From IMG/VR virus record IMGVR_UViG_3300040801_003053, positions 6,977 through 70,976 of that record: a stretch of DNA of 64,000 nucleotides. One strand, given 5' to 3'. Source of the stretch: a virus. Below are positions 1,949 to 28,803 of this stretch, piece by piece (the stretch's first letter is position 1; each line of letters starts with the position of its first letter). The translations under genes were made by a program, and so were the position numbers. Under the pieces are notes generated by a model that was not told where the DNA came from, ran no database searches, and was given only the letters and a program-made list of their open reading frames with translations.

Positions 1949-1980
1949 GCGGGGAGCTTTGCCTACTTCCCGCTTTTTTT
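1949..1980 (+). terminator. Intrinsic terminator just upstream of terL
   Basis: GCGGGGAG/CTTCCCGC 8-bp stem (one G-U pair), 9-nt loop, T7 tract. Confidence 0.7.
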
Positions 1981-1988
1981 ATTTGTGT

Positions 1989-11220: not shown

Positions 11221-11907
11221 ATGCTCACAGAAGAAAACATCGTTCACCAGCTTCAGATAGAATACAAAGGAGGCACAATTAACCAAGACAATCGTATTGG
11301 AGAGCGTGAGATACGATCTTTTCTCCAAGAGCATCGCCCCGATGTTATTCGCCAAGCTTATCGTCGAGACAGAGTTCTTGGCGATTCTGAGTTTCAAGAC
11401 CTTGGTGTTCTGATAACAACGATAGAGGATATGCTTTACGTTGTCGAACTACCGCCGATTGTCATGTTTCCCGGATATGAAAGCATCCGATTGACTTCGG
11501 CTACCGGCAATGCAATTCCTCTGATGAACAAGGAGGATTTCGTTCATTCGCGTAGAAACCGGACCACTCAATTTGGAACTAAAGCTTTTTATTCTGGTAA
11601 TAAAATTCATATTTTTGAGGGTAAGAGTACCGATATAGGTTATGGAGGAACGGCTGGAATAGATGCTGAAATCTCAGCCATTCAAGAAAAGAAAGTCCAT
11701 GTTTCTTGCATTTTGCAGGATCCAAGTGACGATCCGAATTACGACTGGACAAGCAGTCCCTACCCGCTTAATCCTGATCTGATTCCGATACTCAAAAACT
11801 TGATTAAAAAGAACAATCTGTTTATCATGACAGAGATTAAAAAAGATGAAGTCACTAATCAAAAAGAAGATTCCGTGCGCTACCATGACTTAGGAAGAAC
11901 AAATTAG
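11221..11907 (+). CDS. Tail ring / adaptor protein
   Basis: 228 aa; C-terminal ILQDP...YDW-x3-PYPL resembles crAss-like ring proteins. Confidence 0.55.
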   Translation: MLTEENIVHQLQIEYKGGTINQDNRIGEREIRSFLQEHRPDVIRQAYRRDRVLGDSEFQDLGVLITTIEDMLYVVELPPIVMFPGYESIRLTSATGNAIPLMNKEDFVHSRRNRTTQFGTKAFYSGNKIHIFEGKSTDIGYGGTAGIDAEISAIQEKKVHVSCILQDPSDDPNYDWTSSPYPLNPDLIPILKNLIKKNNLFIMTEIKKDEVTNQKEDSVRYHDLGRTN

Positions 11908-11908
11908 G

Positions 11909-12373
11909 ATGGAAATAAAACGAGACGTATTTGGCATTAACTATTTCTTTCAGAAGTGTCTGAGAGGAGGAAAGAAATACGACACGTTAAAGCACTTCGG
12001 AGTCAAAACCCCCTTCAATAAAAAAAAGAAGATCGAGATAAAACAATTTCGATCAATTCTCAAAGCATACAGTGAAGTTTACCTGGGCGATCTTTATTAC
12101 GGGGATCAGCCTATGTATTTTCCTATCGGCGGGAAATTAATGAAAACACGATCACGTAGAAAGAACAAACTTCTGCAGGATTCCATTTACTTCATCTGGT
12201 ATCACCGAATGAAATTGTCCTATGCCCTGAACATGAAGCTGATCAAAGTAAGACACAGTAACATTCATTTGGAATGGACAGACAGGATAAGGGCAACACA
12301 AGACACAAGTCTCTTGGATGAAAAGCATGAGGCTACAATAAAATTAATAACCAAATTGGTGCGAAATGATTAG
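11909..12373 (+). CDS. Basic IHF/HU-like protein of the crAss-like structural module
   Basis: Helix (FRSILKAYSEVYL) followed by YFPIGGKLMK beta motif; IHF-like genes sit among ring genes in crAss-like phages. Confidence 0.4.
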   Translation: MEIKRDVFGINYFFQKCLRGGKKYDTLKHFGVKTPFNKKKKIEIKQFRSILKAYSEVYLGDLYYGDQPMYFPIGGKLMKTRSRRKNKLLQDSIYFIWYHRMKLSYALNMKLIKVRHSNIHLEWTDRIRATQDTSLLDEKHEATIKLITKLVRND

Positions 12374-13082
12374 TGGATTAGTATTCTTTGAAGAGTTGGT
12401 GCAGTCGTTTAAAGACGAAACCGGCATTGAAAACGCTCAAAACTATTACGAGAAATTGGCTCGCATTATTTTTGATGCAGAAGAAGACATAGGGTACCAC
12501 GGCACAATCGTACCAAAGATTAAAACCTACACAAAGGGTTCTGAAGGTTATGACGGCTCTTGGCTTCCGGTTCCTTATGATTTTACAGGGGAATACCATT
12601 ACGCTGCAATCAACACAGGTCGGTGGATGGGTAATGGCATTAAGCTTTATGAAGATGGCCCGGACAGTGTTGACTTGAAATACATGGGATTCATGACGGA
12701 CAGTTATGGGCAGCCTGTAACGACAATGAATCACAAGCGAGCTGTTGTTGCTCGAATGGTTTGGAAAATGTATGCAAGGAAAGTTTTTATGGGCCAGGGA
12801 GATAGGCAGCAATTACGCTATTTGAAAAGAGATTATGAAGATCTTGTTATGGCCTCCAGAGGGCATGATGCTTTCCCGACAGAAGAAGAACTTTCCATTA
12901 TCGGAGAGACTCTGAGAACGCCTACATCACAATTGATCACATTGACATGTGGCCAGGTAGAGGATCCATATGCAGACATACTCATTGGCGGGTCTACAAC
13001 CGCGCCTCCGGGTAGTGGTGATGCTGATTGCGGAGATCTTACCGTAGATATGGTTGCAGTATTTGAAGCAAATTTAACTTAA
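12366..13082 (+). CDS. Tail ring / tubular protein
   Basis: 238 aa; LPVPYDF...VDLKYMGF-x-TD-x2-GQP pattern typical of ring/adaptor proteins. Confidence 0.55.
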   Translation: MISGLVFFEELVQSFKDETGIENAQNYYEKLARIIFDAEEDIGYHGTIVPKIKTYTKGSEGYDGSWLPVPYDFTGEYHYAAINTGRWMGNGIKLYEDGPDSVDLKYMGFMTDSYGQPVTTMNHKRAVVARMVWKMYARKVFMGQGDRQQLRYLKRDYEDLVMASRGHDAFPTEEELSIIGETLRTPTSQLITLTCGQVEDPYADILIGGSTTAPPGSGDADCGDLTVDMVAVFEANLT

Positions 13083-13086
13083 AGCA

Positions 13087-13368
13087 ATGGCAAAATTATC
13101 AGAACAATTAGATACGGAATTAGCTGCGTTTGCAGAGCGAATGGCAGAAGAGTTCAACAAGCGCATGGGGCCATGGAAAGTGCTTACTATTGACGGTAGG
13201 CGCTTCTATCATGTAAAAGGATTGAATAATTTTGTCGATGGCGCTTGGGAGCCTGGCGATAAAGCTGTCGGAGATAAAAACGGCTATGTGATTATCGCTG
13301 AGTTTTTGGGCGGCGATCCTGATGACTGGGATAATGATGCCGTTTGGGATAAATCAACAATAGGATAA
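13087..13368 (+). CDS. Hypothetical tail-associated protein (93 aa)
   Basis: ORF between ring gene and fibre gene. Confidence 0.55.
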   Translation: MAKLSEQLDTELAAFAERMAEEFNKRMGPWKVLTIDGRRFYHVKGLNNFVDGAWEPGDKAVGDKNGYVIIAEFLGGDPDDWDNDAVWDKSTIG

Positions 13369-13378
13369 AAAAAGAATC

Positions 13379-16300
13379 ATGAAAAAATATCTAGTATTAA
13401 TAGCTCTTTTTGTTTTTGCCTTTGGCTATTCGCAACAAGGGCCTCCTCACAAGACTCGAACACAACTTCAGCTTGACGAGGCAGACGAAACAACAACAGT
13501 GAACAACTTGCTCACTCGTGGAGATGACAAGATTGTAGATATTGTCACTTGGGATGAGTTTATCACGCTTCTCGAAAATGAGGGTATTGGTGGTGGTGGA
13601 GCTGGCAATACAGATCTTTCAGCTACGCATAGCCCTACAGGTGTTGTTGTTTCATCAAGTACAGGAGACGATGCTACGCTATTATTCGCTACGCCGATCA
13701 ATGCAGGACTTCTCAGTCCGGCTGACAAAACGATCATAGACAACCTATCTTCTTTTGATCCTACAAATTACGCTCGAACCGATATAGATGAAATTTTCGA
13801 GCAAGGCATAACCGTAATTGACGGCATACGCATAGGCAACCAGAGTACCTATGGATATTTGAATTTTTATGGTGGTGGCACCGGAGAAGTAAAAGCTTCC
13901 ATTTCTTTTGACGCTCAAACCAAAGACATTGTTTTTGTCAACAATGAGGTCAGCGGAAATTATTCCTTTGACGGAACGGTGGCGGTATCGGATCCTGTTG
14001 GAAATACAGATGCAGTCAATATGCAGTACATGGAGGATAATCTTGCCGGAACGACAAACACTACGGCTTTTGTGCCAACGGCCGACTACCATCCTGCAAC
14101 TAAAAAATATGTGGATGATGAAATTATTGCTGGAGGGGGATATAATGATGAAAACGCTCAAGACGCTATTGGAAGCATCTTGTTGGACGGAACAAGTATA
14201 AACTTCACCTACGATGACAACACGCCATCAATTACAGGAGAAGTCATCATGTCGGCTCTTTCAATTACTACAAGCCAGATTACAGACTTCGGAACATATG
14301 TGCAAAGCACAGATAATACAACCTTTACCGGGAATAATACTTTCAATGAGGCGATCACTTACAATGCAACCAATGCCGAGATTGATGCTATTGGAGAAAA
14401 TGTAGTTATGTCTGTAGACTGGTATTTGGACAACCTATATCATACCGGAGATAATATTGCGATTACGCCTGCAGGAAACCTCACTTCAACAGATGTGCAA
14501 AACGCCCTTGAAGAGCTTCAAATTGACATTGACAATACTGTAGCCGGAAATATCCAATACGCCATTACAACGGACTATACGACCGATGCAAGCAACTCAG
14601 GTCAGAAAGGAATCATGACTTCCGGAAATACAATTACCATTGACGGGACAGGGTTGCTTGTTGAATATGAAAATACAATTGTAAATGGGTCGGCAAACAA
14701 TATCACGGTTGATATTGCAGCGGGACAAAGCACATTTAACAACCAAACATTGCCCGCGATACTTGCGCCTGGTTATTATGTCTACATGGAAAAAACAGGA
14801 GCAACACAATGGAGTGTCATTATTGGCGGCGCCGGTGGCGGTGGCGGTGGTGATGTTTACCTGGCAGGCAACCAGACGTTCACCGGCAATAACGTATTTG
14901 ACGAAAACATTACGCTCAATAGTGATCCTACAACAGGGGACCATATTGGAAATGTGACCTACAATGACAATCGCTATGCCACAGAAGAAGTTGATCGCAT
15001 TACAAAAAATGCCAATTTCTCTACAACACTTGCTGAAAAGGGAGATTTTATCGATATGACCGGAGGAACGACTGTCACATTGGATTTGACAGGATTGCCT
15101 GATGGTTACAACCAGACTGTCTTTAATGATACAGGCGGCAATGTTGCTCTCTCATCGGCAAACACAATCAAAGGGCAGAACAATAGTATTCCAAATGGGT
15201 ACTTTGCTACTTATGTTCTCGATTCAGTGGCTGGCGAATGGCTTGTATCTACTCCGGGAGCTGGGGGCGGTAGTGGCGCAGTCGATTCCGTTAATGGAGA
15301 AACAGGAGCCGTTGTTCTTACTTCAGACGATATTGACGATACAGGTCAGGCTCACCAGTTTGTTACGGCTACCGATGTGACCAATTTAGGCAACCTTTCA
15401 GGAGTAAACTCGGGTGACCAGACTATTACGCTTACAGGAGATATTACAGGGTCAGGAACAGGCTCTTTTGCAACGACTATTGCCAATGGGGCCGTACAAA
15501 TGGACGATCTTGACGCAACGGGAACGCCAAGTGCTTCTACCATTCTTTTTGGCGATGGTGTTTGGCGGTCTATATCTGGCGGTGGTGATATGCTCAAAAG
15601 TGTATATGACACAAATGATGATGGAGCGGTCAACAATACAGACAGTCTTGGAGGTGTTGTAGCTTCAGATTATGCAAGATTGAGTCAAGCGAATACATTC
15701 ACTAATATTGGCAATACGTTTCAGACGAGGTTAACAATAGGTGATAATACGATTACAAATCCAACTTTGTATTTTGAATCAACCAATGGACCGAACACAG
15801 GAATCATACAGGCTGATTTGAATGCAATGAGTTTTAATTCAAATGGAATTTCATTTCAAATCAGCAGTGCCAATTCTCAATTACAAACAGCTTGGGATCC
15901 AACAACAGGTGATGGTATCGGAAACCGAGATTATAACGATGGACGTTATGCCATAAATTCTCACAACCACGGAACCTTTGACCGAAATACGGCAGACCTT
16001 TCAGGAGCAACTGTATTTGACCGTATTGCGGTGACTGACGGAATTGTGACAGATATAGGTACGCGAAATATTACACTTGCTAACTTGGGGTATGTGGGAG
16101 ATCTTGATGCAAACAATTATGTGCATCCAACAGGAGACGGAAACTTGCATGTGCCCGCAAGTGGCTCTACCAACTCCGGAAATGTGCTGACAGCAACGTC
16201 AACACCAGGTCAATATGTATGGTCAGCCCCGGCATCCGGCGGCATGACTTCATGGGATATTGAAGTGGACGGTGTTTTTAAAGAGGCTATAACACAAGGA

Positions 16301-16963
16301 GAGAACGTAAGTTTTGATAGCGGGACCGGAATACAGGTAACGGGAACGACGGTCACCAACCCAAATCTGACGTTTGCCCTGACAAATACGGCGGTTACCC
16401 CCGGAACATACAATTCGGCAAATATTACAGTAGACGCTCAAGGGCGTATTACTTCGGCGGCGGCCGGCGCACAGGGAACCATGTCCTCTTTCCGTTTGGT
16501 AGATAAAACTGGAACTCTACGAGAAGCGATAACCGATGGTGAAGACATCGGATTTGTTGGAGGAAACGGAATAGGCGTTGTCATTGACACCACTACGGAT
16601 CCTGATATTACTTTCAGTTTAGGAGGCTTGTCAGCTGATTGGAATGCGGGAAGCTACAATATTACTGCAGGAGGCTTTTATGAAAGCTCTATGCGATCTT
16701 TGAAGATGAACATAGCCCCTTTTACCAAAAGCGCGCTAGAACTCATCAGAAGCCTTGAAATTGTTTCATACGACAGAATAGAGGGTGCTAAGAACAAAAT
16801 AGGGGTGATCATTGAAGATACACCCGAGGAATTTGGAAACGAGGATATGACAGCCGTAGATATTTACAAGACAGTATTTATTCAGGCAAAGGCGATACAG
16901 GAACTTGAAGAAAAAATAGAACAACTCGAATCACGAATTGAAAAGCTAGAGAATGGCAATTGA
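13379..16963 (+). CDS. Tail fibre with C-terminal intramolecular chaperone (peptidase S74) and N-terminal Sec signal peptide
   Basis: Fibre motifs (ATKKYVDD, VDSVNGETGAVVLT, GTYNSANITVDAQGRITSA); S74 start SSMRSLKMNI and terminal coiled coil AIQELEEKIEQLE; MKKYLVLIALFVFAFGYS|Q. Confidence 0.8.
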   Translation: MKKYLVLIALFVFAFGYSQQGPPHKTRTQLQLDEADETTTVNNLLTRGDDKIVDIVTWDEFITLLENEGIGGGGAGNTDLSATHSPTGVVVSSSTGDDATLLFATPINAGLLSPADKTIIDNLSSFDPTNYARTDIDEIFEQGITVIDGIRIGNQSTYGYLNFYGGGTGEVKASISFDAQTKDIVFVNNEVSGNYSFDGTVAVSDPVGNTDAVNMQYMEDNLAGTTNTTAFVPTADYHPATKKYVDDEIIAGGGYNDENAQDAIGSILLDGTSINFTYDDNTPSITGEVIMSALSITTSQITDFGTYVQSTDNTTFTGNNTFNEAITYNATNAEIDAIGENVVMSVDWYLDNLYHTGDNIAITPAGNLTSTDVQNALEELQIDIDNTVAGNIQYAITTDYTTDASNSGQKGIMTSGNTITIDGTGLLVEYENTIVNGSANNITVDIAAGQSTFNNQTLPAILAPGYYVYMEKTGATQWSVIIGGAGGGGGGDVYLAGNQTFTGNNVFDENITLNSDPTTGDHIGNVTYNDNRYATEEVDRITKNANFSTTLAEKGDFIDMTGGTTVTLDLTGLPDGYNQTVFNDTGGNVALSSANTIKGQNNSIPNGYFATYVLDSVAGEWLVSTPGAGGGSGAVDSVNGETGAVVLTSDDIDDTGQAHQFVTATDVTNLGNLSGVNSGDQTITLTGDITGSGTGSFATTIANGAVQMDDLDATGTPSASTILFGDGVWRSISGGGDMLKSVYDTNDDGAVNNTDSLGGVVASDYARLSQANTFTNIGNTFQTRLTIGDNTITNPTLYFESTNGPNTGIIQADLNAMSFNSNGISFQISSANSQLQTAWDPTTGDGIGNRDYNDGRYAINSHNHGTFDRNTADLSGATVFDRIAVTDGIVTDIGTRNITLANLGYVGDLDANNYVHPTGDGNLHVPASGSTNSGNVLTATSTPGQYVWSAPASGGMTSWDIEVDGVFKEAITQGENVSFDSGTGIQVTGTTVTNPNLTFALTNTAVTPGTYNSANITVDAQGRITSAAAGAQGTMSSFRLVDKTGTLREAITDGEDIGFVGGNGIGVVIDTTTDPDITFSLGGLSADWNAGSYNITAGGFYESSMRSLKMNIAPFTKSALELIRSLEIVSYDRIEGAKNKIGVIIEDTPEEFGNEDMTAVDIYKTVFIQAKAIQELEEKIEQLESRIEKLENGN

Positions 16964-18245
16964 TAGTGACAAAATGGTAACATTCTCCGATCTCGGGGAG
17001 CTTGTGGCTTTTGAAGGTTTTGACGTAAAGAATCCTTTCGATGATTCAGTCAAGAAAGCCTGTACAAAAGCTGAGGTCGATGCTGCTATTGAGGTTGAGA
17101 AGATCGCTGAATATGTAAGCTGGCCTTCAAACAAATTGGTGCCACGAAGATTGCTTAATCCAAGACCTTATTATTGGGATGGAATGTTTATCTCTTGCGA
17201 GACAACGGATATTGGTGATGACCCGCCAACGGCACCTGTCATCTACAATACGTCTGCCACGCCAAACAGCCTCACAATAAGTTATTCAATCTCCAGTGAC
17301 GATAATGGGATCGATCATTACCAAGCATATATCCGGAATCCTCAGACGGGAACCGTGAATAGTTACAATGCTGGACTCAGTTTGTTCTATACGTTTAATG
17401 GTTTAAATGCCAACACCCAGTATGAGATGTGGGTTGTGGCGGTAGACACTATCGGTCAAAACTCACCGGACAGCAATCACGTAAACGCTTACACGACATC
17501 GGCAAGTACCGGTGTCAATACAATGGGCATTCTAACCTATGTTGGAGCTAATACAGGATCGGTAGATCTGGTGTGGGCCGATCCCGAGGAAGTGAAGTCT
17601 GGACAGACCGTATCTACATTCCGGTTTGAATATCGTGTTTACGGCAGTGGCAGTAGTTGGACCCTGCATGGATCCTCTGTAAGTGGATCTCTACGGGAAA
17701 CTACATTGACAGGTCTTTCATCCAACACAAATTATGAGATGAGAGCCAGGTTCCAAACCAATACAGGGGAATGGAGTTCTTACAGTAATATCATCATATT
17801 CGCTACAACGGCACCAACGGTCCTTTCTTGTGGAACAACAGATATTGAAGGATCACATAGCAATGTGTCAAAGCAATATACAATCAATATGTCGGGGAGC
17901 ACAGGGTCTTTCATGTTTGAGGTTCAACCCTACTCTGTGCCAGACCGGTTTGTAATTTTGAGCGGTGGCAATGTTTTGTACGATTCAAAATATATCGGAT
18001 CCTCATCGGACTACTTTGTAACTGAATTGGATCGTTTGGGTGTGCCTGCATCCGATCGCAGATTAGGGCAAACTGATCTGATTTTCCCTGAAACAGAAAT
18101 TATCAATGAGGGGCAAACTCTTTACAGGTATGGTCGAAGAGGGTACATAAGTGCAAATCAAATTACAGGAGGCCAGGTTACGCTCATTGTGTTTGCCCCG
18201 GTGAATGTAACTACATGGAGAGCTAAAATACAATGCCCATCATGA
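16953..18245 (+). CDS. Tail-associated protein with two fibronectin type III domains
   Basis: GLNANTQYEMWVVAVD and GLSSNTNYEMRARF FN3 signatures. Confidence 0.75.
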   Translation: MAIDSDKMVTFSDLGELVAFEGFDVKNPFDDSVKKACTKAEVDAAIEVEKIAEYVSWPSNKLVPRRLLNPRPYYWDGMFISCETTDIGDDPPTAPVIYNTSATPNSLTISYSISSDDNGIDHYQAYIRNPQTGTVNSYNAGLSLFYTFNGLNANTQYEMWVVAVDTIGQNSPDSNHVNAYTTSASTGVNTMGILTYVGANTGSVDLVWADPEEVKSGQTVSTFRFEYRVYGSGSSWTLHGSSVSGSLRETTLTGLSSNTNYEMRARFQTNTGEWSSYSNIIIFATTAPTVLSCGTTDIEGSHSNVSKQYTINMSGSTGSFMFEVQPYSVPDRFVILSGGNVLYDSKYIGSSSDYFVTELDRLGVPASDRRLGQTDLIFPETEIINEGQTLYRYGRRGYISANQITGGQVTLIVFAPVNVTTWRAKIQCPS

Positions 18246-18673
18246 GCAATACAGGATACAAAATATGGCTGAGAAGAATCAAGAAATGGTCTGACGATGA
18301 CTCAAATGCAGGGGTTGTTGAAATAAACACCGAGTTCCTGCCAGATGGAGTCACCCCTGACCCTAATTATATTCCAAAAGAATATGACCCGCTCTCCTGC
18401 CCATTGCCAATCACAACATACCCAAGAACACTTTCTGATACGGGAACGGGTGTGATCACTTGTCAGTCGGGAGGCGCATGGCAGAATGCTTATACAAATA
18501 ACCAATTTACGAATCCGGCAGTAGGAAATTATTTCTATCAAGATACGGATGGCTATAACCCTTGGCCTGGAGGTAATAGGTGGTGGAACTTTAACGGTTC
18601 GACAGCAACACAGGTGAAAATTGATAACAACGGAAGAGTCACACAAATACAAACAGGATGCCCCGAATTATGA
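18242..18673 (+). CDS. Small tail-associated protein
   Basis: ATGA overlaps at both ends; TG-x-K...DPNY-x-P-x2-D-x3-CP motif seen in Bacteroidota phage tail proteins. Confidence 0.55.
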   Translation: MSNTGYKIWLRRIKKWSDDDSNAGVVEINTEFLPDGVTPDPNYIPKEYDPLSCPLPITTYPRTLSDTGTGVITCQSGGAWQNAYTNNQFTNPAVGNYFYQDTDGYNPWPGGNRWWNFNGSTATQVKIDNNGRVTQIQTGCPEL

Positions 18674-21600
18674 AAAACTTAATCTACATACTACTTTTCG
18701 CAACATCGATAATGTTTTGTCAAAACCCGGCAATCGTTCAAGTGCAAATAGGTCAAGAAGCTGAAAAGCCACCTGTAGAGCCTAAAGATTATTTGGAGTT
18801 TCTAACAACATCCAATTCGGCTACATTTTCTCCAGATGATATTATCAATTCTGGAGGTGATTTAACCTGGACAGTAAACGGCGGCCAAAGCCAAACCATT
18901 TCAGGTAGTGTTGAGCCTGTCTTTGATTTAAGCGGCAATGTCGATACAGACACCATACGCATAAAATCATTGACCGATTTTGTTGGGTTGACCAAGATCA
19001 CATTTACAGATAAAGCCATTACTGGGTTTGATGTTAGCCTAGCGCAAGACCTCTATACATTTGAAGTTAAGATTGGCAACACCCTTTCAGAAGCTGATGT
19101 GACAAGCAATTTGGAACTGGGAGAGCTGGTCATACGCGATCAGCTGATTACGAGCATAGACATATCTAGCAATCCCGATCTTTTTGAATTATGGGCCTAC
19201 AGAAACAGCCTAAACTATCTGGACATATCTAATAATCCTTTACTTACAACTGTTTCTATTCATGGAAACAATCTACAATCAGCAACTTTGGACTCGATTG
19301 TCAACCAGCTTGATTCCAATGGCCTTTCCAATGGGCGTTTGGATATTATCAACAATGCAGGGTCTTTAACCGGAGCTGTATATACCGCTTATCAAAATTT
19401 AATTGCCAGAGGATGGACGATTGATGTTGGCCCTCCTGACAATCCGGCTGACGCAGGGCTTACTCCTGTTCTCTCAGCCTTTTATGTGGACGATGTCAAT
19501 CCGGACCGGGTTTACTTTGATGCTTCAGCAGACATCACAGGTTTAACTCAGCAAGGATTTACAGTATCTGGAAAGACACTGGAAGCCTCTAATGGACTTG
19601 TCATTGACGGTGATGGTCTTGGTGGTTATTTAGACGTTACTGTACCTTTTACCTATTGGGATAACCTTTTGGTTTGGCTTGAGGGTGGTAATGGGACTGT
19701 ACACGACTTTATGCAAGTGGAAGTTGATAATCGTATTTCTGAGCCATCGTCTACGGGTAGCACGTATTACGTTACAACTTCAGGTAATGACGGAAATGAT
19801 GGCTTGTCGGAAGGTAATGCCTGGAGAACTTTAGCCTATGCGGATGGACAATTATCAGCAGGAGATATTCTTTACGTTAAGGCGGGTAATTATGGTGATG
19901 ATAAAATGTATCTGGTTAACAGGGCCGGGACAGCCGCAAATCCAATTAAGATCATTGGATATAAAAACACACCAGGAGATATTACAACAAATTACTACGA
20001 TTACGGAGTAGCCTGGTCTACAAGTGAAATGCCAACTGTTGATGGTAATGGTGCAGTCACAAGGGCTTTTGAGGCTACTGGGGCAAGCTATTTAATCGTA
20101 AAGAATTTCCAATATACAGATCATAGATATGGAATGTATTTTGCAAATACAACCACAGCTAATAACATTCATGTTGAGCGTTGTAACTTCCTAGATCAAG
20201 GAGATGTATCTACGGACGGGGCTAGTGTTTACAGTACAGGAATTGCAAATACAAAAATGCGATTCAAAGATTGTGTATTCAATGATGCTTCCGATGTCAA
20301 TATCGTTTTGATGGGCAACAACAATTCAATCATTGACTGTAAATCTTACGGAGAGAGGACAGATAATAACTTCCCTGACCTTGACTTGGAAACCGACTAC
20401 TACTACATCATATCTGGCTTGTACAATACGATAATTGGAAGCATAGCAGAAAGAAAAGGTCAAACAGATCACGGTGGTCATGGCATCTCCTTGAAAAATC
20501 AGTATTACACTGTTGATAACACCTATGCCGTTGAGAGAAATTTAGTCAAGAATTGTGTTGTTAAAAATATCAATGGAGCGGTTGAACTGCGCCATGCAAC
20601 TGTTCAAGATAATTATGTCTATAACGTTGAAATGGACGCTTCTGGAGGTGGAACAACATCGGCAGGACTTGTCATTCGTGACGGTGCTAAAAACAACGTA
20701 GTGGACGCTTGCGAGGTTCACAGCATACCAACAGGGGCTTCTTTTTATGGAGCTGTCTACTTTACCAATACGAGTGAGGATCAATCCTCTAACCAAAATA
20801 TAACTGGTAACATCATCAAGAACTGCATCTTTAGGGATGGCGGAGCGAATGTTCACGCAATTAATTGGGGAACAACAGGAACATACGCATACACGGTAAG
20901 CGGAAACAAGTTCTACAACAATACGTTTGACAACTTCCCACGATTCCAAAACAAAGATGGTATTGTGGTTGTGAGTTCGGACAATGAGTTCAAGAACAAC
21001 ATTTTTAACGATGTGACTGTGTTGGGTGACGCGGTTGCAAATGTATATGACTACAACCTATTCTTTAATGGATTTGCAGCCCAAGGAACAAATACAATAA
21101 CAATCGATCCTCAAATGGATATTAGTTATGTCCCTGGTGCTACTTTCACAGATATTGATGTACCAGCTTTATCATCTGTCAAATACGATAAAAACAGCAG
21201 GGAGCGAAATAGAACTTTAACCACTGCTGGGGCACAAAGTCATTCTGAAGAGCCCTCAAACACAGAAAACCTATCAACTCCTGTTCTCTCAGCTTTCTAT
21301 GTAGATGACACTAACCCGGATCGAGTGTATTACACTTCAAGCGATGATGAATCTGGATTAACAACTCAAGGTTTCACGATTTCCGGAAAAACCGTATCAG
21401 GAATAAACACGACAGACAACTATATTACCGTATCTACTCCATTTACTTATTGGGATTTTGCAATAACGATTAAGCTAGAGAATGGAAATGGAGTAGTGCA
21501 TGATTTCTATTTGAATGAAGTTGTCAACAACATCTCAGAGCCTACAAACTCCACGATTAAATATGTAGCCGTTGGAGCATCGGGATCAGGAGACTCAACA

Positions 21601-23742
21601 GGCGATCCTATGTCTTGGTCAGACGCTCAGAGTGTGTCGGCAGGAACAACGGTTTATTGGAAAGCGGGTAACTATGGGGCGATCAATTTCACTCAAACAA
21701 ATAGCGGTACGTCCACAGCACCAATCAAGCATATTGGGTATAAGACCACACCAGGGGATGCAGCAGAGCTTACAAGGTCTGTGGGCATGGCTTTTGACAG
21801 TGCGGAAATGCCATTGATTGATAGTTTTACTGGAAATGCTTTCTATTCCGTATCGAAGCAATACGTGATCTTTAAAAACTTCCAAGTTTCCAATGGAACG
21901 ACAGCGTTTTATATAGACAACTCAGATTATCACTTTTTCGAGAACACTTACATAGACGATATGAGTTCATTCGGGATCTTGACTATTGATTCAGGGTCGC
22001 TAGGTAATAAAATCAAGCGGAGCTATGTTGCGAATTGTTCTTCCGTGGGTTACAGGCTCTACAATCACAACAACGTATTTGACGATGTGTATGCTTGTAC
22101 TTCCGAAATATCAAGCATGGACTATTACATAAGTCTCTATGGAGGAACTGGAAGCCTACCAAACCTTGTGAAAGACTCCTACGTGTACAGATTGTCAACG
22201 GATAATCATGGGGGCCATGGAGTTGACCTGAAAGCAGGAGAGGAAGTTTGGACCCTTGAGAATACTCTGGTTGAAAACAATGAGCTTGTTAATGTGAATC
22301 AATCCCTGACAGTACGACACAGGGGAACAAAATACAATGTATTTAGAGGTAATACAGTTCGGGCTGAAACAGCAGGGAACGGAAACGGGATTGTTTTTCA
22401 TGATGGAGGGGCCTATAACGTATTTGACGGAAATACAATCATAGACAAAGGAAACGCTTTCAGGTGGTATGAGTCAAGTGAGGACGAAGAAGATTACGCC
22501 AATAAAGAGTCCGGCAACAATAACTTGATTATTAACAATGTCATTGATGGGGTTTATGCAATACTTGATGTAGCCTTTTATGACTTGGACGACCATGTTG
22601 TTCCTTTCCATGACAACAAGTGGTACAACAACACTTTTCATGATGTTACCTATTTCTATAAAGAAGACACAGAGACTTTTGACAGTACCAACGAGTTTAA
22701 GAACAACATCTTTGACGGTGTGGCAATCAAAGGAACAGGATCAGAGAATATCACGTTTGACTACAACTTATTTAATGCAAGCTGGACAACGAGCTATGGA
22801 ACAAACTCCATAAGTGCAGATCCTCAGTTGGATGCCAGCTATGTTCCTCAAGCCTTATTTGCTTCGATTGGCGTACCTCAAATATCCGGTCTGTACTATG
22901 ATTATTATGCAGGTGAAAGAGAATCGACAACAACAGCAGGTGCGGTTAAACACACGGATGAATTGTCTGCACCCGACACGACAGCACCTCTTTACGTTTC
23001 TTCCTCAGTTGAAAATGGGGCACCGTCAAGCCTGGTAATCAATTACGATGAACCATTGGACGCAACAAGCGTACCCGCAACAACTGATTTCTCAGTCAAT
23101 GACGGATTAGCAAATCCGGTGACGAATGTTTCAATAAGTGGGTTGAGCACAACCCTGACGCTCACCAATGAAATAGATAATGGCGATACAGTGACATTGA
23201 GCTACACGAAAGGAACAAACCCAATTCAGGATGACGATGCGAATGAAGCTGTTAATCTTGTGGGCGAATCGGTGACAAATAACGTGTTGGGCGCAACAGA
23301 GATTTACCCAACAGGTAACGCGGCGAGTATAGGAGCGTCCGAAGGGAATAGTACAGGAAGTTGGCTTGGTGTAAGTGCAACTCTGACTTCTGAATCTGGA
23401 GACACCTACGATGGAACGTATGCCTTGAAAATAAATTCTAATACAACAGGAACTTGTAGAGGTGAAATAACATGGACACAAACACTAGGTACAGATGTTA
23501 CGGTGACTTTCAGAATGAAGGTAGTGCAAGGCTCTTGGGCCAGATCCTACGCCTGGACAGGCTTTACGGCTTCACCTGATACAGGAATCCTAAATGACGT
23601 TGATGATGGAACGTGGATAGAATATTCCTACACTCTGACCCCTAGTAGTACCGAAGGAAAAATGAGAATTTACTCCACTTACAACACCTCTGGTACAATA
23701 GGAGACAATGTGCTGGTAGACTCAATAACAATTACGCAATGA
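18670..23742 (+). CDS. Giant signal-peptide adhesin/depolymerase-like protein (LRR, two beta-helix modules, SwmB-like domain, CBM-like domain)
   Basis: MKNLIYILLFATSIMFC|Q; LRR (LDISNNPLLTTVSIHGNNL); YYVTTSGNDGNDG-type beta-helix start; SwmB-like LVINYDEPLD...VTLSYT; C-terminal jelly-roll; ATG 18670 is coupled by an ATGA overlap. Confidence 0.7.
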   Translation: MKNLIYILLFATSIMFCQNPAIVQVQIGQEAEKPPVEPKDYLEFLTTSNSATFSPDDIINSGGDLTWTVNGGQSQTISGSVEPVFDLSGNVDTDTIRIKSLTDFVGLTKITFTDKAITGFDVSLAQDLYTFEVKIGNTLSEADVTSNLELGELVIRDQLITSIDISSNPDLFELWAYRNSLNYLDISNNPLLTTVSIHGNNLQSATLDSIVNQLDSNGLSNGRLDIINNAGSLTGAVYTAYQNLIARGWTIDVGPPDNPADAGLTPVLSAFYVDDVNPDRVYFDASADITGLTQQGFTVSGKTLEASNGLVIDGDGLGGYLDVTVPFTYWDNLLVWLEGGNGTVHDFMQVEVDNRISEPSSTGSTYYVTTSGNDGNDGLSEGNAWRTLAYADGQLSAGDILYVKAGNYGDDKMYLVNRAGTAANPIKIIGYKNTPGDITTNYYDYGVAWSTSEMPTVDGNGAVTRAFEATGASYLIVKNFQYTDHRYGMYFANTTTANNIHVERCNFLDQGDVSTDGASVYSTGIANTKMRFKDCVFNDASDVNIVLMGNNNSIIDCKSYGERTDNNFPDLDLETDYYYIISGLYNTIIGSIAERKGQTDHGGHGISLKNQYYTVDNTYAVERNLVKNCVVKNINGAVELRHATVQDNYVYNVEMDASGGGTTSAGLVIRDGAKNNVVDACEVHSIPTGASFYGAVYFTNTSEDQSSNQNITGNIIKNCIFRDGGANVHAINWGTTGTYAYTVSGNKFYNNTFDNFPRFQNKDGIVVVSSDNEFKNNIFNDVTVLGDAVANVYDYNLFFNGFAAQGTNTITIDPQMDISYVPGATFTDIDVPALSSVKYDKNSRERNRTLTTAGAQSHSEEPSNTENLSTPVLSAFYVDDTNPDRVYYTSSDDESGLTTQGFTISGKTVSGINTTDNYITVSTPFTYWDFAITIKLENGNGVVHDFYLNEVVNNISEPTNSTIKYVAVGASGSGDSTGDPMSWSDAQSVSAGTTVYWKAGNYGAINFTQTNSGTSTAPIKHIGYKTTPGDAAELTRSVGMAFDSAEMPLIDSFTGNAFYSVSKQYVIFKNFQVSNGTTAFYIDNSDYHFFENTYIDDMSSFGILTIDSGSLGNKIKRSYVANCSSVGYRLYNHNNVFDDVYACTSEISSMDYYISLYGGTGSLPNLVKDSYVYRLSTDNHGGHGVDLKAGEEVWTLENTLVENNELVNVNQSLTVRHRGTKYNVFRGNTVRAETAGNGNGIVFHDGGAYNVFDGNTIIDKGNAFRWYESSEDEEDYANKESGNNNLIINNVIDGVYAILDVAFYDLDDHVVPFHDNKWYNNTFHDVTYFYKEDTETFDSTNEFKNNIFDGVAIKGTGSENITFDYNLFNASWTTSYGTNSISADPQLDASYVPQALFASIGVPQISGLYYDYYAGERESTTTAGAVKHTDELSAPDTTAPLYVSSSVENGAPSSLVINYDEPLDATSVPATTDFSVNDGLANPVTNVSISGLSTTLTLTNEIDNGDTVTLSYTKGTNPIQDDDANEAVNLVGESVTNNVLGATEIYPTGNAASIGASEGNSTGSWLGVSATLTSESGDTYDGTYALKINSNTTGTCRGEITWTQTLGTDVTVTFRMKVVQGSWARSYAWTGFTASPDTGILNDVDDGTWIEYSYTLTPSSTEGKMRIYSTYNTSGTIGDNVLVDSITITQ

Positions 23743-26210
23743 TGACAACTAAAAAGCTATTTTCCATCTTACTGATCCTTGTGAGTTTTAGTGTTCAAGC
23801 ACAATTAGTTCGGGCGGTTATCGGTCAGAACAATTCGGCTACCGGGGGAGAAAGCATTCCCACAGGAGCAGACTATTACGTGTCAACCTCTGGCACGGGA
23901 ACAGGGGATGGTTCTATTGGTGATCCGTTAGACTTTACGCAACTCCAAGCCCTAACTCCTGTGGCGGGAGATACCATTGCCCTGAAAGGGGGGGATGAGT
24001 TTTATGGGAGCCTGACATTATCGGGTGTAAACGGAACGGTTGGAAACCCAATTACTTTTACTTCTTACGGAACAGGTAAAGCTACTATAAAAGGTTCAGA
24101 ATCAATTACGGGATGGGCGAATGAAGGTGGCAATATTTGGAGTGCTGATGTTACTGGAAAAACAATTTACAATGTGTTTTCAAATGGTGTCCCAGCTAAT
24201 AACACAAGGACACCATTGCCAAATATGTACACTATTGATACTAAAACATCAAACACAGTTTTTATATGCAACGAGTTAGCTGGAGTTGGATATCCTGACA
24301 TTGTTGGTGCAACAGTTTACACGGAGTCTAATCAATGGACAATGCAAAATAGGACTGTTACTGCCTTTAATGCTACAACTGGAGAAATAACTTTGAGTGG
24401 TGCTGAAACAATTTCAGAAGGAAATTTATTCACAATACATAATCACAAGAATTTATTATCAAGTCAAGATGATTGGGCTTACGATTCTTTAGCGAATAAA
24501 TTGTATGTATATTCAACAACGTCTCCAACAAATGTAACCGCAACCACAAGCAATACGAATGGTATTTCTATTGCAACATCAAGCTACGTTACCATTGATG
24601 GTTTAGAGGTTAAGCACTTCTCAAACTATGGAATCTCATTTTCTGGTTCAAATAATCTTGTTTTCGATAACAATTATATTCACGATTGTAATCTCAGGGG
24701 TATTTCAGAGGCTTCCTACAATAACACAAATACTTACATCACTGTGACCAACAATCAAATTGAGAAAATGGATGAGCACGCTATTAGAATTTATGGTCAA
24801 AATTCTGTAATTGAAGATAATGTGATTTCTAATGTGGGTATGCAGGATTACAAGACATGGACTAACTCAGGATATACCACCGCAATATATTCAAACAGTG
24901 ATGATGGCACTATTAAAAGGAATTCCATTGAAAACACGGGCTATAATGCAATTAATTTTTCAGGTCAGAGAACAATTATTGATAAGAATTATGTAGAAAA
25001 CACAAATATCTACCTACCTGATGGGGGGGCTATCTATACTTACAGTACTGACTTTACAGATACAACAGGTGACGATTCCGAAATAACAGATAATACAGTA
25101 ATAAATCCTGTCCCCGCAAGATTTAGAGAGAGTATAGGATTGATTTACCTGGACGACAGAAGTAAAGGGCAAACAGTTAGTGGAAACACAACAGAGGGCG
25201 GTAAACGAGGTATTTTCTTACACAACACAAGAAATGTAACCGTATTGAATAATACAGTTCACGCACCAGCCCAAGACGGTATAGGGATATCAGAAGATGC
25301 AAATGGAGGAAGCGGGAACACCTATGGCAATGTTCTTACTGGAAATAAAGTTCTTGTTGCAGACAGTGAATATCCTGTGTCCGCTATCGGAGTTGCAAGT
25401 TCTTATGGCAGTACGGGAATGTACACTGGATCAAACAATGAGTATTATAACATTGGGTTTTCTCATCCTGTATTATTCAGAAACACATCAACATATTTCT
25501 TAAATTCAAATTATCCAAAACCTCTTACTGTTTCTGAATTGCAAACCTTGATTTCGAGTGAATCTGGCACGACTTCAAATTCTAGTTATGACAATGAGCA
25601 ATTTTCTTTAGCAACACAAGGAGCTGAAATTTATACAAATACCAATTTCGCTTCTGGCATAAGTCCGTGGAACGCAACAGGTTCAGGCGCATTGGTTACG
25701 TGGAATGCCTCTGGATACCTGGAGTTTGACCCTAATGGAAATGCAAATGCAATGGTCGCTGCAAATGACCTCAGGGTAAATGCTACTGAAGGTCAAGTTT
25801 ATTTGGTTCAGTTTGATGTGAAAGGGACGACACCTCATTGGGGTAGATTCAACTTTCAAATGACAGGCTCGCCTTACAAATCTGCTGGAATACGACCATT
25901 TTGGATAACCTCATCATGGATGACTCACAAGTATTTAATCAGAATTACTGACACTGGAAATGATTACAGAAGTGAATGGAGAAACGAAAACGATTCTGTG
26001 AATGGATTTGAGTTAGATAATGTCAGCTTGACCCTAGTCACTGAAAGTACTAAGCCCCAGAACACATTCTTAGCCTACAACGAAACTTCAGTTGCAAAAG
26101 ATATTGCACTTCCGGCAGGAACTTGGGATAGCGTAGACGGAACGCAAACAAATAAAACGGGGACAGTGACAGTGCCCGCATATAACTCATACATAATGAT
26201 AAAACAATGA
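23739..26210 (+). CDS. Signal-peptide right-handed beta-helix protein (polysaccharide depolymerase-like) with C-terminal CBM-like domain
   Basis: MMTTKKLFSILLILVSFSVQA|Q; YYVSTSGTGTGDGS, GDTIALKGGDEF, DGGAIY beta-helix motifs. Confidence 0.7.
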   Translation: MMTTKKLFSILLILVSFSVQAQLVRAVIGQNNSATGGESIPTGADYYVSTSGTGTGDGSIGDPLDFTQLQALTPVAGDTIALKGGDEFYGSLTLSGVNGTVGNPITFTSYGTGKATIKGSESITGWANEGGNIWSADVTGKTIYNVFSNGVPANNTRTPLPNMYTIDTKTSNTVFICNELAGVGYPDIVGATVYTESNQWTMQNRTVTAFNATTGEITLSGAETISEGNLFTIHNHKNLLSSQDDWAYDSLANKLYVYSTTSPTNVTATTSNTNGISIATSSYVTIDGLEVKHFSNYGISFSGSNNLVFDNNYIHDCNLRGISEASYNNTNTYITVTNNQIEKMDEHAIRIYGQNSVIEDNVISNVGMQDYKTWTNSGYTTAIYSNSDDGTIKRNSIENTGYNAINFSGQRTIIDKNYVENTNIYLPDGGAIYTYSTDFTDTTGDDSEITDNTVINPVPARFRESIGLIYLDDRSKGQTVSGNTTEGGKRGIFLHNTRNVTVLNNTVHAPAQDGIGISEDANGGSGNTYGNVLTGNKVLVADSEYPVSAIGVASSYGSTGMYTGSNNEYYNIGFSHPVLFRNTSTYFLNSNYPKPLTVSELQTLISSESGTTSNSSYDNEQFSLATQGAEIYTNTNFASGISPWNATGSGALVTWNASGYLEFDPNGNANAMVAANDLRVNATEGQVYLVQFDVKGTTPHWGRFNFQMTGSPYKSAGIRPFWITSSWMTHKYLIRITDTGNDYRSEWRNENDSVNGFELDNVSLTLVTESTKPQNTFLAYNETSVAKDIALPAGTWDSVDGTQTNKTGTVTVPAYNSYIMIKQ

Positions 26211-26902
26211 TGAGAAGAAGATTTGTACCAATATTTTTAAAACGTAGAAATGCAAGTAGTGTACCACCAAGTTACATTACGCCACTTTTCTCCGATACTT
26301 TTGATGGAACAATAATAGATACGGGAAAATGGACGATTGTAAATCCACAGCCTACCCAAGTTGTATTTTCGCAAAATAACGAATATGATGCATTGTTACA
26401 GGGGGCAGACACAGGGTATTTGGATAATCATTGGGCTTCTGTCCCTAGCTTCAATGTGGCAATTAATCCGACACTTGTGTTTACAGTTGACTTTAAAACC
26501 ACATCAACAGAGCTTGGTAATGGTAGGGGGTATATCTATTTAGCGAAAAATTATCCATCTGAACTTGATGTTCTTACTTTGAGAAACGATGGAGCTAATA
26601 CAGTTGCAATAGAATTTAAAATAGGAGGAAGCTCACAATTCAACCAGACATTCACCACACCCTTAAACCTTACAAACTATCAAACGTTCAAATTTGTATT
26701 AACAAGTGCGGGATTTGATGTGTATGTGTGGGATACAAGTTCATGGTTACTATTAAAATCACATGCAACAGCTATATCCGGAGATTACAATTTTGTACTG
26801 GATGCCAGGTCATTAGGGGCAGACGGAAATACAGTAAATTACGATAATGTATATGTGTGTGCTGAAGATTTTGATTCGCAATATCCTTCACTAACACCAT
26901 AA
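26207..26902 (+). CDS. ConA-like lectin/glucanase-fold tail-associated protein
   Basis: FSDTFDGTIIDTGKW start and beta-rich body ending YDNVYV; basic MRRRF N-terminus. Confidence 0.5.
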   Translation: MMRRRFVPIFLKRRNASSVPPSYITPLFSDTFDGTIIDTGKWTIVNPQPTQVVFSQNNEYDALLQGADTGYLDNHWASVPSFNVAINPTLVFTVDFKTTSTELGNGRGYIYLAKNYPSELDVLTLRNDGANTVAIEFKIGGSSQFNQTFTTPLNLTNYQTFKFVLTSAGFDVYVWDTSSWLLLKSHATAISGDYNFVLDARSLGADGNTVNYDNVYVCAEDFDSQYPSLTP

Positions 26903-26962
26903 AATACGTTCACAATGAAGAACAGAACAACGAAATTAATAATGACTTAAAATTCAAATATC

Positions 26963-27493
26963 ATGGCAATTAAATTAGGCTTTCTAACAGCTTTAATGTT
27001 CATTCTGGTATCATTTACCCTTTCCAGCCAAACAACGACAAGGAAAGGGTATTATAACGCTCACATGGGGGATTCAATCGGTCCAAACCGAACTACAGCC
27101 GACAAAGCGATATTGGATTGCTATGGTATGAGTCAAAATAATCCGGATGGTCTGGAGATCTATTACACGTTGCCTGCCCGGGTCGTAGTTGATTTTCCTA
27201 TTGACTCTCCGGTCATTGTTACCGAGCCTCAATTTTTAATCAATTCGGTAACCCAAGAGGTCGGTCAGACTTCGGTTGTGCTTAATATTGAATTTAGCAC
27301 ATCGGATTTAAAATTTGCTTATGTAAGGTTTCGTCCTGTTGGAGGTATATGGCAACGAACCAATGATGATCCAGCTTATGTTCATTGGATCGGAGCTTTG
27401 GATAGAAATACTGAATATGAATACATTGTGTATGGGGAAAACATGGATGGTGTAAAAATCAATAGTGACTTATTGACCTTTATTACAAATTGA
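26963..27493 (+). CDS. Signal-peptide protein with C-terminal FN3-like domain
   Basis: MAIKLGFLTALMFILVSFTLSS|Q; ALDRNTEYEYIVYGEN FN3-like motif. Confidence 0.6.
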   Translation: MAIKLGFLTALMFILVSFTLSSQTTTRKGYYNAHMGDSIGPNRTTADKAILDCYGMSQNNPDGLEIYYTLPARVVVDFPIDSPVIVTEPQFLINSVTQEVGQTSVVLNIEFSTSDLKFAYVRFRPVGGIWQRTNDDPAYVHWIGALDRNTEYEYIVYGENMDGVKINSDLLTFITN

Positions 27494-27534: not shown

Positions 27535-27843
27535 ATGGAAGTATTAGTAAATTTCGGAATTGGACTACTGGGGATCCTTTTTTTAACACTTTTCAATGCA
27601 AAAGACTACTTAGCAAAAAAAGACAAAACCTTTTCTTGGCCTGTTCATGTTAAAGAAAACTACAATCGATGGATATGGGCCGGACTTATGATCGGAGTTA
27701 TATCTGTCATTGTTTTTGTAGAGCCTAATACAGCAGACGGAATCAAAAGTTTCACCGGACTTGATGTTGCGGGTTCACGAGTATCTTTCTTTACTCTTGG
27801 ACTTGCCTTGACAGCTATGACGAAGAAAAAGTCAATAAATTAA
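27535..27843 (+). CDS. Small membrane protein (holin-like, about 3 TM)
   Basis: Hydrophobic segments and basic C-terminus KKKSIN. Confidence 0.6.
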   Translation: MEVLVNFGIGLLGILFLTLFNAKDYLAKKDKTFSWPVHVKENYNRWIWAGLMIGVISVIVFVEPNTADGIKSFTGLDVAGSRVSFFTLGLALTAMTKKKSIN

Positions 27844-27851
27844 AAATTGCA

Positions 27852-28163
27852 ATGAAGGAATACGTAGTTGAAGCTCTAAAAGACGTATTAATTTTTTTTG
27901 TTTTTGGAGCGTACACACTAATAGCGAGAACAAATGCAGCAAAAACACCATTAAATCTCAGACAGAAATTTAACGTCTTTTATATGGCAGTTGCATCAGG
28001 ATGGGGAATATACAGTTTACTACTTGGGGTAAATCCATGGGTAGGTGAACCTCCTCAAAAGATTTTCATTATAATGACGGCCACCGTTGCGGGAACAAAT
28101 ACGGTTGCCTGGTTAAAGAGAAAACAAATAATTCAAAAATTAATAGACGTTCTTATAAAATGA
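27852..28163 (+). CDS. Small membrane protein (holin-like, about 3 TM)
   Basis: Three hydrophobic stretches. Confidence 0.6.
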   Translation: MKEYVVEALKDVLIFFVFGAYTLIARTNAAKTPLNLRQKFNVFYMAVASGWGIYSLLLGVNPWVGEPPQKIFIIMTATVAGTNTVAWLKRKQIIQKLIDVLIK

Positions 28164-28543
28164 TTTGGTTTAGTATTACATCAGCAATATGGCTTGTGAT
28201 ACGTTCTGGTGTAGAAGCATGGGCGACATCCAAGGCCTATAAAAAAGGAAGATATGTAGAAAACAAATTCCAGCATAGCAATCACCACATGGGAGGCTTG
28301 TACGGCTATGTGTATTGGGGTTTGATTTGTTTAGCAATGATTTTTCTTGGATACAGGTTTGATGATTATTGGGTTCCTATACACACAGCTTTCAATCTGC
28401 TATTGATTTACAATGTAGAGCACTTCTATCAAGAAAGAACAGAAACCATTGGCCCCATTGAGCCTTATAAATTATTCCGGATCCCGGGACTCTTCAAATT
28501 CAATTGGTCCTGGATTTTTAAAAGTCAGAAAATAAACCATTAA
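28160..28543 (+). CDS. Small membrane protein (about 3 TM)
   Basis: Hydrophobic, aromatic-rich; ATGA overlap. Confidence 0.6.
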   Translation: MIWFSITSAIWLVIRSGVEAWATSKAYKKGRYVENKFQHSNHHMGGLYGYVYWGLICLAMIFLGYRFDDYWVPIHTAFNLLLIYNVEHFYQERTETIGPIEPYKLFRIPGLFKFNWSWIFKSQKINH

Positions 28544-28554
28544 ATATCTATACC

Positions 28555-28803
28555 ATGAAAAATTTCACATTATTAAAACCACTGTTCACACAAGGATTTT
28601 TAGTATTCCTTGTTTTCTTTGTTGTCATTGATCTTTTGTTGTTCCGATACATGAAAGCTTTTGCTCCTGTATGGTTCATCTTTGTCACTCAAATCACAGC
28701 GATCATAGGCTATGTCGTTTCAAATGGATTTGGTGATGCCGGAAAGGTCGTATGGGACTTTGCAAAAAAATGGTGGCCAGATAATGAAACGGAGAAAGCA
28801 TGA
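28555..28803 (+). CDS. Small membrane protein (2 TM)
   Basis: Two hydrophobic helices. Confidence 0.6.
   Translation: MKNFTLLKPLFTQGFLVFLVFFVVIDLLLFRYMKAFAPVWFIFVTQITAIIGYVVSNGFGDAGKVVWDFAKKWWPDNETEKA

Follow-up and report, generated by a model that had tools for sequence, protein, structure and literature searches.

We have found that four genes in the tail module of a crass-like podophage (Crassvirales) begin with predicted Sec signal peptides of the kind cleaved by signal peptidase I in Bacteroidota, with Gln at the +1 position in every case. The phage was analysed over a stretch of 64,000 nucleotides (positions 6,977 to 70,976 of IMG/VR virus record IMGVR_UViG_3300040801_003053), hereafter the window, and the four genes lie at 13379-27493 of that stretch. 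Sequence comparison indicates that the signals are conserved in homologues and are not relics, which is our main result. Judged by their translations, the four products are real Sec and signal peptidase I substrates of a Bacteroidota host, and their export and cleavage are very likely. We propose that the four genes together form the phage's host-surface kit, predicted to consist of an S74 trimeric fibre, two beta-helix glycan enzymes that carry sugar-binding modules, and a small protein of the FN3 type. Sec export, maturation in the periplasm and attachment at lysis is, in our analysis, the best reading of these signals.

Textbook accounts place the assembly of tailed phages wholly in the cytoplasm, and current annotation treats signal-bearing proteins as non-structural. 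The Q-rule of Bacteroidota signal peptidase I combines a basic n-region, a hydrophobic core, small residues at -3 and -1, and Gln at +1 (Bochtler et al. 2018, PMC5837995; PMC10653852). Five Q-rule proteins of unknown function have been described in Porphyromonas gingivalis prophages (Matrishin et al. 2023, PMC10367356). Like the window's proteins, these are phage-encoded and adapted to the host Sec pathway, whereas they are accessory genes of unknown function and the window carriers are fibre and depolymerase-like tail-module proteins of a crassvirus. For the window proteins, Q-rule cleavage and conversion of Gln to pyroglutamate are predicted from sequence alone. A search of the literature on signal peptides of phage fibres returned only the P. 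gingivalis prophage remark and nothing on fibres. New from the window are the Crassvirales case, the syntenic conservation of the signals and, for the third gene, the connection of a phage protein to host cargo.

Signal peptides on four tail-module proteins

The first gene (P0001; 13379..16963, plus strand; 1,194 aa) starts with MKKYLVLIALFVFAFGYS|QQ (GYS|Q), the second (P0002; 18658..23742, plus strand; 1,694 aa from the ATG at 18658 and 1,690 aa from 18670) with M(PRIM)KNLIYILLFATSIMFC|QN (MFC|Q), the third (P0003; 23739..26210, plus strand; 823 aa) with MMTTKKLFSILLILVSFSVQA|QL (VQA|Q), and the fourth (P0004; 26963..27493, plus strand; 176 aa) with MAIKLGFLTALMFILVSFTLSS|QT (LSS|Q), where the bar marks the predicted cut. 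Each translated leader has a Lys/Arg n-region, an uncharged hydrophobic core of 10-14 residues and small residues before the cut, followed by Gln (4/4). Signals were called with our own rule-based Sec/signal peptidase I scan, using as criteria a positive n-region, an uncharged h-region of 7-15 residues and small residues at -3 and -1. As a control for chance, internal Met-started segments of the same proteome were put through this test; 3 of 452 passed, and none of them had Gln at +1. Against this background, the occurrence of such leaders on four adjacent large proteins is not attributable to chance. A hydrophobicity scan of all 86 open reading frames (ORFs) of the 75.5-kb genome revealed no further protein of more than 150 aa with such a leader, barring one minus-strand ORF with a TTG start (53272-53757, 161 aa). 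All remaining hydrophobic N-termini are those of small membrane proteins, of which six are encoded directly downstream at 27535-29374. The translations, the ORF scan and the chance control bear out the central claim of an earlier note on this DNA, namely that four genes of the tail block carry a signal peptide followed by Gln.

The same note had remarked that the first gene lacks a nearby internal ATG. The next in-frame ATG of P0001 is indeed codon 215, with in-frame GTG and TTG at codons 41 and 44. In P0002, codons 1, 5 and 19 are all in-frame ATGs, the third only two codons before the predicted cut, so that a signal-less isoform beginning MFCQNP... is possible. Its leader is the weakest of the four, with Met at -3 and Cys at -1. 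The suggestion that this Cys might belong to a lipoprotein cleaved by signal peptidase II had to be dropped, since the sequence IMFC, with Phe at -1 relative to the Cys, does not conform to the lipobox [LVI][ASTVI][GAS]C, and since a homologue on another contig (L009) has TNA|Q without the Cys. Other features linked to export were sought and rejected. A Pfam scan of P0001-P0004 found neither the Por_Secre_tail domain (PF18962) nor a type B sorting domain of the type IX secretion system (T9SS), and the Bacteroidota O-glycosylation motif D[ST][AILVMT] is not enriched in the four proteins (z -1.5 to +0.7), which speaks against O-glycosylation as the driver of export. The 231-aa protein encoded at 26207, which starts with MMRRRFVPIFLKRR, resembles a twin-arginine (Tat) substrate in its RRxFLK-like motif but has no hydrophobic core.

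By translation, Pfam search and alignment, P0001 is a mosaic tail fibre in which the signal (residues 1-18) is followed by a conserved mature N-terminal domain (residues ~19-70; PHKTR..LQ.D...KIV), a Gly-rich linker and a C-terminal S74 chaperone. Its shaft modules are common piecemeal to many fibres, with and without signals. The assignment of P0001 as an S74 fibre, which the earlier note had also made, holds: PF13884 matches residues 1106-1152 at 24.7 bits against a cut-off of 22, and the conserved Ser1104-x4-Lys1109 lies within a motif, FYESSMRSLKMNI, that could be aligned with 8 other S74 fibres. We take Ser1104 and Lys1109 to be the catalytic pair, by analogy with endosialidase. P0001 shares with endosialidase-type S74 fibres (e.g., that of phage K1F) the C-terminal S74 domain, the Ser-x4-Lys arrangement and a mosaic shaft with widely shared repeats, and differs from them by its N-terminal Sec signal.

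After the signal, P0002 has a leucine-rich-repeat-like region and then two beta-helix domains, with an Ig-like module in front of each; these are followed by a SWM_repeat and, at the C-terminus, by a domain resembling a carbohydrate-binding module (CBM). One of the beta-helices is 26% identical to the signal-less virion protein gp048 of phage phi4:1. P0003 is glycosidase-like: a phage-specific linker of 24 residues joins the signal to a right-handed beta-helix, behind which lie a jelly roll resembling a CBM and, at the end, a beta-sandwich. Its AlphaFold2 (AF2) model has a mean predicted local distance difference test (pLDDT) score of 83.6, and among solved structures the model comes closest to the Bacteroides glycoside hydrolase BT_1002 and to XylC, with phage capsule depolymerases next. 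P0004 carries a short MGDSIGxNRT segment and an FN3-like domain behind its signal.

Conservation of the signals and origin of P0003

Gln stands at or adjoining the predicted cut in 19/19 signal-bearing proteins from six phage loci. The earlier note had raised the question of whether homologues in relatives lack signals; with these proteins and the signal-bearing homologues described below, both syntenic and distant homologues retain signal and Gln. A related crass-like contig (L024) was reached via the protein encoded just upstream of the fibre (46% identity). Its syntenic fibre ORF begins MKKLIILMLLLITTISYA|QIPHKTRDSLQID (QIPHKTR) and shares 37% identity with P0001 over residues 1-96. An ORF with a signal (TIFG|QRILVPS) also lies just upstream of the P0002-homologous region of this contig, where the reading frames are broken. 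The fibre and P0002-like genes of L024 are split into many short ORFs over 11558-16486, for which indel errors of long-read assembly are a probable cause. A small membrane protein is encoded between the 94-aa gene and the fibre of L024; it is also present in L025 and not in the window.

A search for the S74 domain covered 1.84 billion representatives and gave 1,154 library matches. The closest two full-length S74 relatives, P0068 and P0070, both have a signal plus Gln. P0070 sits after tape-measure, Dit-like and Tal-like genes on a long-tailed phage contig (L006), and it is the first of five consecutive signal-plus-Gln genes, which include homologues of the P0002 C-terminal region and of P0004 (260 aa, likewise with a signal and then Gln) and are followed by a membrane protein of the family encoded at 27535 in the window. 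The true start of P0068, in L008, is MKKIFLLVAFMLASILGFS|Q. In a Cyclobacteriaceae prophage (L002), an S74 fibre with a signal lies at the end.

The other genes of the block gave similar results. On phage fragment L005, a protein of equal length to P0003 (P0037) is 34% identical to it and has the signal ISFG|Q; the gene upstream of P0037 has a signal as well (VQG|Q), and the gene downstream is 59% identical to the first small membrane protein of the window. A 914-aa protein of L009 is 35% identical to P0002 over 905 aa, is predicted to be cut at TNA|Q, and belongs to a run of four consecutive signal-plus-Gln genes.

Comparable cassettes are found in two cultured Cellulophaga phages of the Assiduviridae. 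In phi10:1 (NC_021802), reading of the N-termini showed that gp091-gp095 all have signals, with Gln at +1 in 5/5, and in phi19:1 (NC_021799) gp101-104 all have signals, with Gln at +1 in 3/4. The record note "annotation based on experimental MS/MS proteomics analysis" (MS, mass spectrometry) is attached to gp091-094 of phi10:1 and to all four phi19:1 proteins; gp095 has a signal but no such note. As in the window, a run of tail-end signal genes (fibre, pectate-lyase-like, unknown) is followed by a small membrane protein; gp096 of phi10:1 is homologous to the window protein encoded at 27535, and phi19:1 gp105 has an N-terminus nearly identical to that of gp096. The two phages differ from the window phage in that they are long-tailed and have a tape measure, whereas the window phage is a crass-like podophage. 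Except for the membrane protein, their cassette proteins have no detectable sequence similarity to those of the window, and the MS annotation of virions pertains to the Cellulophaga phages and not to the window phage.

Sequence relationships indicate that P0003 is cellular in origin. In sequence it is most closely related to Bacteroidota cell proteins that carry both a signal and a T9SS sorting domain (PF18962), with up to 39% identity across 94% of P0003; Maribellus and Saccharicrinis are among the named sources. Homology to the T9SS type A sorting-domain protein of Maribellus comscasis is full-length and takes in the Sec signal and the beta-helix fold, and BT_1002 (PDB 5mqp), the structural neighbour of P0003, has the same beta-helix fold. 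P0003 departs from the cellular cargo at both ends. The catalytic YYV motif lies 0-4 residues past the signal in the cellular proteins, whereas P0003 and P0037 have 21-24 extra residues there; both lack the T9SS domain (Por_Secre_tail), and P0003 ends in a CBM and beta-sandwich. Signal-less versions beginning MATYY... also exist (P0055, P0047), and MATYYF... occurs in a phage-like contig. Three versions of the enzyme family can thus be told apart by these comparisons, one as cellular cargo, one as a conventional phage protein and one as a phage protein with a signal. Of the explanations offered in the earlier note, capture of host secreted proteins with their signals has direct support for the third gene, the best homologues of which are signal-bearing T9SS cargo of cells. 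Three more cellular homologues adjoin polysaccharide-synthesis or export-like genes. In two loci (L014, 8004-9617, and L015, 10001-11722), cellular P0003 homologues lie by polysaccharide chain-length or export-like genes, with no intact ORF over the matched region (table 11); frameshifts, assembly errors or decay could be the cause of the broken ORFs.

Export, virion assembly and rival explanations

Outer parts of the virion probably mature outside the cytoplasm in which the particles are built. Under the reading that we favour, the four proteins would be made late, alongside the virion genes, passed through SecYEG in the unfolded state and cut directly in front of Gln, after which a host glutaminyl cyclase would turn the +1 Gln into pyroglutamate. 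They would then fold in the periplasm, where the fibre would trimerise and shed its S74 chaperone, and they would meet the fibre-less cytoplasmic particles only once the holin opens the inner membrane. The docking end would be the N-terminus made by signal peptidase, and surplus enzyme would act on host glycan before and after lysis. From export to attachment at lysis, we infer these steps, and for the window phage itself we give this sequence-based reading an even chance of being correct. It had been among the explanations proposed in the earlier note, and it has gained indirect support from the signal-bearing proteins of phi10:1 and phi19:1 that carry MS/MS notes.

In phage crAss001, a docking hub on the tail barrel grips the trimeric fibre gp22 by its N-terminal residues 1-26 (PMC10172136). 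If the mature fibre N-terminus of the window phage served for docking, this would fit with that arrangement and with the conservation of the first ~55 mature residues, up to the Gly-rich linker, between the window phage and L024. P0003, P0037 and several other cassette proteins have a short hydrophobic strand-like motif after the Gln (Q-L/V-x-x-V/I-I-G/S), which may be a common docking peptide.

Several observations weigh against export followed by attachment at lysis. S74 fibres are mostly signal-less: among the ~130 nearest full-length ones, only ~9 have a signal, although all ~9 have Gln at +1. The nearest cultured Crassvirales, crAss001 (gp22-26) and phi14:2 (g085, g086), resemble the window phage in having fibre or spike genes in a late block with lysis genes next and with ring and muzzle borders, but their fibre proteins differ in having no signal peptide. 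The phi4:1 spikes and the S74 fibre of a Chryseobacterium jumbo phage have none either. By sequence, a signal on the fibre is thus a minority state and does not characterise Bacteroidota phage fibres in general. The MS notes stand in the GenBank records of other phages, phi10:1 and phi19:1; they may reflect co-purifying protein, and no N-terminal peptides were seen. P0003, by its model, is closer to monomeric cellular glycosidases (BT_1002) than to trimeric tailspikes. The N-terminus of the FN3-repeat protein encoded after the fibre is homologous to the gene after the S74 fibre in L008, without a signal, and in L006, with one (LFG|Q); since some members of this family have a signal and others do not, the partners would end up in separate compartments. 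A docking partner was not found. Attachment only at lysis is, to our knowledge, without precedent in tailed phages.

The proteins could instead be exported without becoming part of the virion, serving as secreted enzymes or adhesins of the infected cell that trim or mask capsule, extracellular polysaccharide or receptor, either from the periplasmic side or after release. We consider this possible, though on balance doubtful. Such proteins would block superinfection, free progeny from debris and loosen the matrix, in the manner of T5 Llp or of a receptor-destroying enzyme, a function to which we assign the same lesser likelihood. The cellular affinities of P0003 agree with such a role: its best homologues are secreted T9SS cargo, three of its cellular homologues adjoin polysaccharide-synthesis or export-like genes, and its model resembles a monomeric glycosidase. 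So do the signal-less state of the virion-borne homologues in phi4:1, phi14:2 and crAss001, the signal-bearing S74 fibre-like genes of cellular surface type next to PorP/SprF, and the position of the signal-bearing fibre of the L002 prophage past the lysis genes beside the integrase, which is typical of a moron (prophage accessory gene). Conversely, the MS/MS notes put analogous signal-bearing proteins in purified virions of phi10:1 and phi19:1, and in the stretches examined of these two phages and of L006 no large signal-less protein follows the Dit/Tal-like genes, so that no other fibre candidate was seen there. The window proteins have neither a T9SS domain nor a lipid anchor and hence would halt in the periplasm, off the surface glycan, and a related crassvirus has the mature N-terminal domain of the fibre conserved beside its tail-barrel genes.

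Relic or uncleaved signals are both unlikely. That the signals are baggage from captured host genes, largely bypassed during conventional cytoplasmic assembly because Sec is saturated or shut down late, because folding is too fast, or through internal translation starts, appears quite improbable to us, as does each of these bypass routes. P0003 does come from a signal-bearing cellular family of which signal-less phage versions exist (P0055, P0047, MATYY...), and bypass starts can be pointed to in the P0002 ATG two codons before the cut and in the P0001 GTG and TTG at codons 41 and 44. Yet the leader sequences diverge while their functional features and the Gln are kept across homologues that are 34-37% identical and across unrelated phage types, which argues for selection for cleavage; small cassette proteins (64-260 aa) bear signals too, and the phage copies gained a linker after the signal instead of losing the signal. 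Slighter still is the prospect that the leader remains as an uncleaved N-terminal helix, either a signal-anchor that would hold the fibres at the inner membrane until lysis (compare the signal-arrest-release (SAR) endolysins) or a hydrophobic plug in the tail hub. The first 26 residues of the crAss001 fibre are buried in the docking hub, and residues 5-30 of P0003 are modelled by AF2 as a single helix, both of which are compatible with such an arrangement. The N-terminus of crAss001 gp22 is not hydrophobic, however; small residues at -3 and -1 with Gln at +1 are found in essentially all cases and would be purposeless in an uncleaved anchor, and non-fibre members (the FN3 protein and the enzymes) bear the same leader.

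The core of the earlier note, that Q-rule Sec signals are present on tail-module proteins of a tailed phage, is borne out by the sequence and by the homologues. Extending periplasmic maturation and attachment at lysis to a broad set of Bacteroidota phages, the crassvirus included, is a tentative step whose prospects we put somewhat short of even; in all of these phages the last step of virion assembly would be extracytoplasmic, with Sec-exported, pyroglutamate-capped and periplasm-folded fibres and depolymerases added when the holin breaches the membrane. If true, tailed-phage assembly would extend to a further compartment by way of a conserved class of fibres and depolymerases with functional export signals, and the recruitment of host secreted glycan enzymes by Bacteroidota phages as receptor-binding gear would be accounted for, since phages could adopt such enzymes by adding a short docking peptide after the signal. 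The Q-rule could be used as a Bacteroidota marker in host prediction, and fibre engineering in crass-like and marine flavobacterial phages would have to reckon with the signal.

Genome context and neighbouring genes

The window comes from a virus genome of 75,553 bp, for which CheckV gives a completeness of 95%; repeats are absent from its ends. Profile searches identify the genome as that of a crass-like podophage on the basis of the large terminase (1959-4337), the portal (4327-6660), the Crass_capsid major capsid protein (7942-9609), the crassvirus tail ring protein 2 (Ring2; 11221..11907, plus strand) and the crassvirus muzzle protein (31655..36289, plus strand). Further on, the searches assigned a tail lysozyme (36775-38589), a giant 3,761-aa protein (40532-51817) and an M15-type endolysin-like gene (51819-52250). 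Ring2 puts the fibre block in the tail module, and the muzzle gene is the downstream border of the fibre and lysis block, such that the P0001 gene lies in the tail module between the two. The muzzle protein has a weak match to gut crassviruses and to Cellulophaga phage phi14:2.

No match in the phage collection was found by blastn or tblastn for the packaging/capsid region, the major capsid protein, P0003 or P0004; with the capsid unmatched, the genome is, by sequence, far from all cultured phages. tblastn of P0001 and P0003 against the collection matched no crassvirus fibre, including those of crAss001 and phi14:2. Scans of IMG/VR with P0001, Ring2 and a P0003/P0037 alignment gave no close relatives, and a metagenome scan with the P0003 alignment returned cellular loci only and no further phages. 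Part of the fibre gene was found in a single public run, a microbial mat metagenome, as a weak match (0.16 of sampled words).

A 238-aa protein encoded at 12366..13082 (plus strand) is a tentative portal adaptor of the crAss001 R1/T7 gp11-like type. Its AF2 model is of low confidence (pLDDT 57), with best solved matches to the crAss001 portal-assembly chain 7qog_B and to T7 gp11-type adaptors, and it suggests that the protein is probably an R1/adaptor ring protein rather than a fibre hub. Together with the 93-aa protein, also encoded upstream of the fibre, it had been considered as a counterpart of the crAss001 hub proteins THA and THB and was rejected for lack of sequence similarity. Within the fibre block, three signal-less genes are interspersed with the signal-bearing ones on the plus strand: a 430-aa FN3-repeat protein (16953..18245; N-terminus MVTFSDL...), a 146-aa protein of unknown function (18233..18673; phrog_21885), and the 231-aa protein (26207..26902), which has no family match.

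The first of the membrane genes downstream encodes a 102-aa protein (27535..27843, plus strand) that is probably a holin or other lysis component. Its family always comes after signal cassettes, as in L005 (59% identity), L006 (41%) and phi10:1 gp096 (29%, E 7.6e-7). The run of membrane genes in L005 closes with a gene for a beta-barrel-like protein (159 aa, with a signal) and one for an M15-type peptidase; lysis genes come after the fibres in crAss001 and phi14:2 too. From these arrangements, the six-gene membrane cluster at 27535-29374 is probably part of the lysis machinery, though the M15 endolysin-like gene lies at 51819-52250.

Clusters of genes for fibre-like proteins were also observed in Bacteroidota chromosomes outside prophages (L011, 7663-18733, and L012, 1-13075); every one of these proteins combines a Sec signal plus Gln with an S74 domain. 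By sequence, they look like an uncharacterised class of cell-surface fibres akin to phage fibres, and from the existence of such signal-bearing cellular genes it is evident that the S74 fold can mature after Sec export. One cluster adjoins PorP/SprF and CHU_C (type B T9SS); the other is a tandem array of four paralogues with the common mature N-terminus (H/K)VYQIRADSVRIY.

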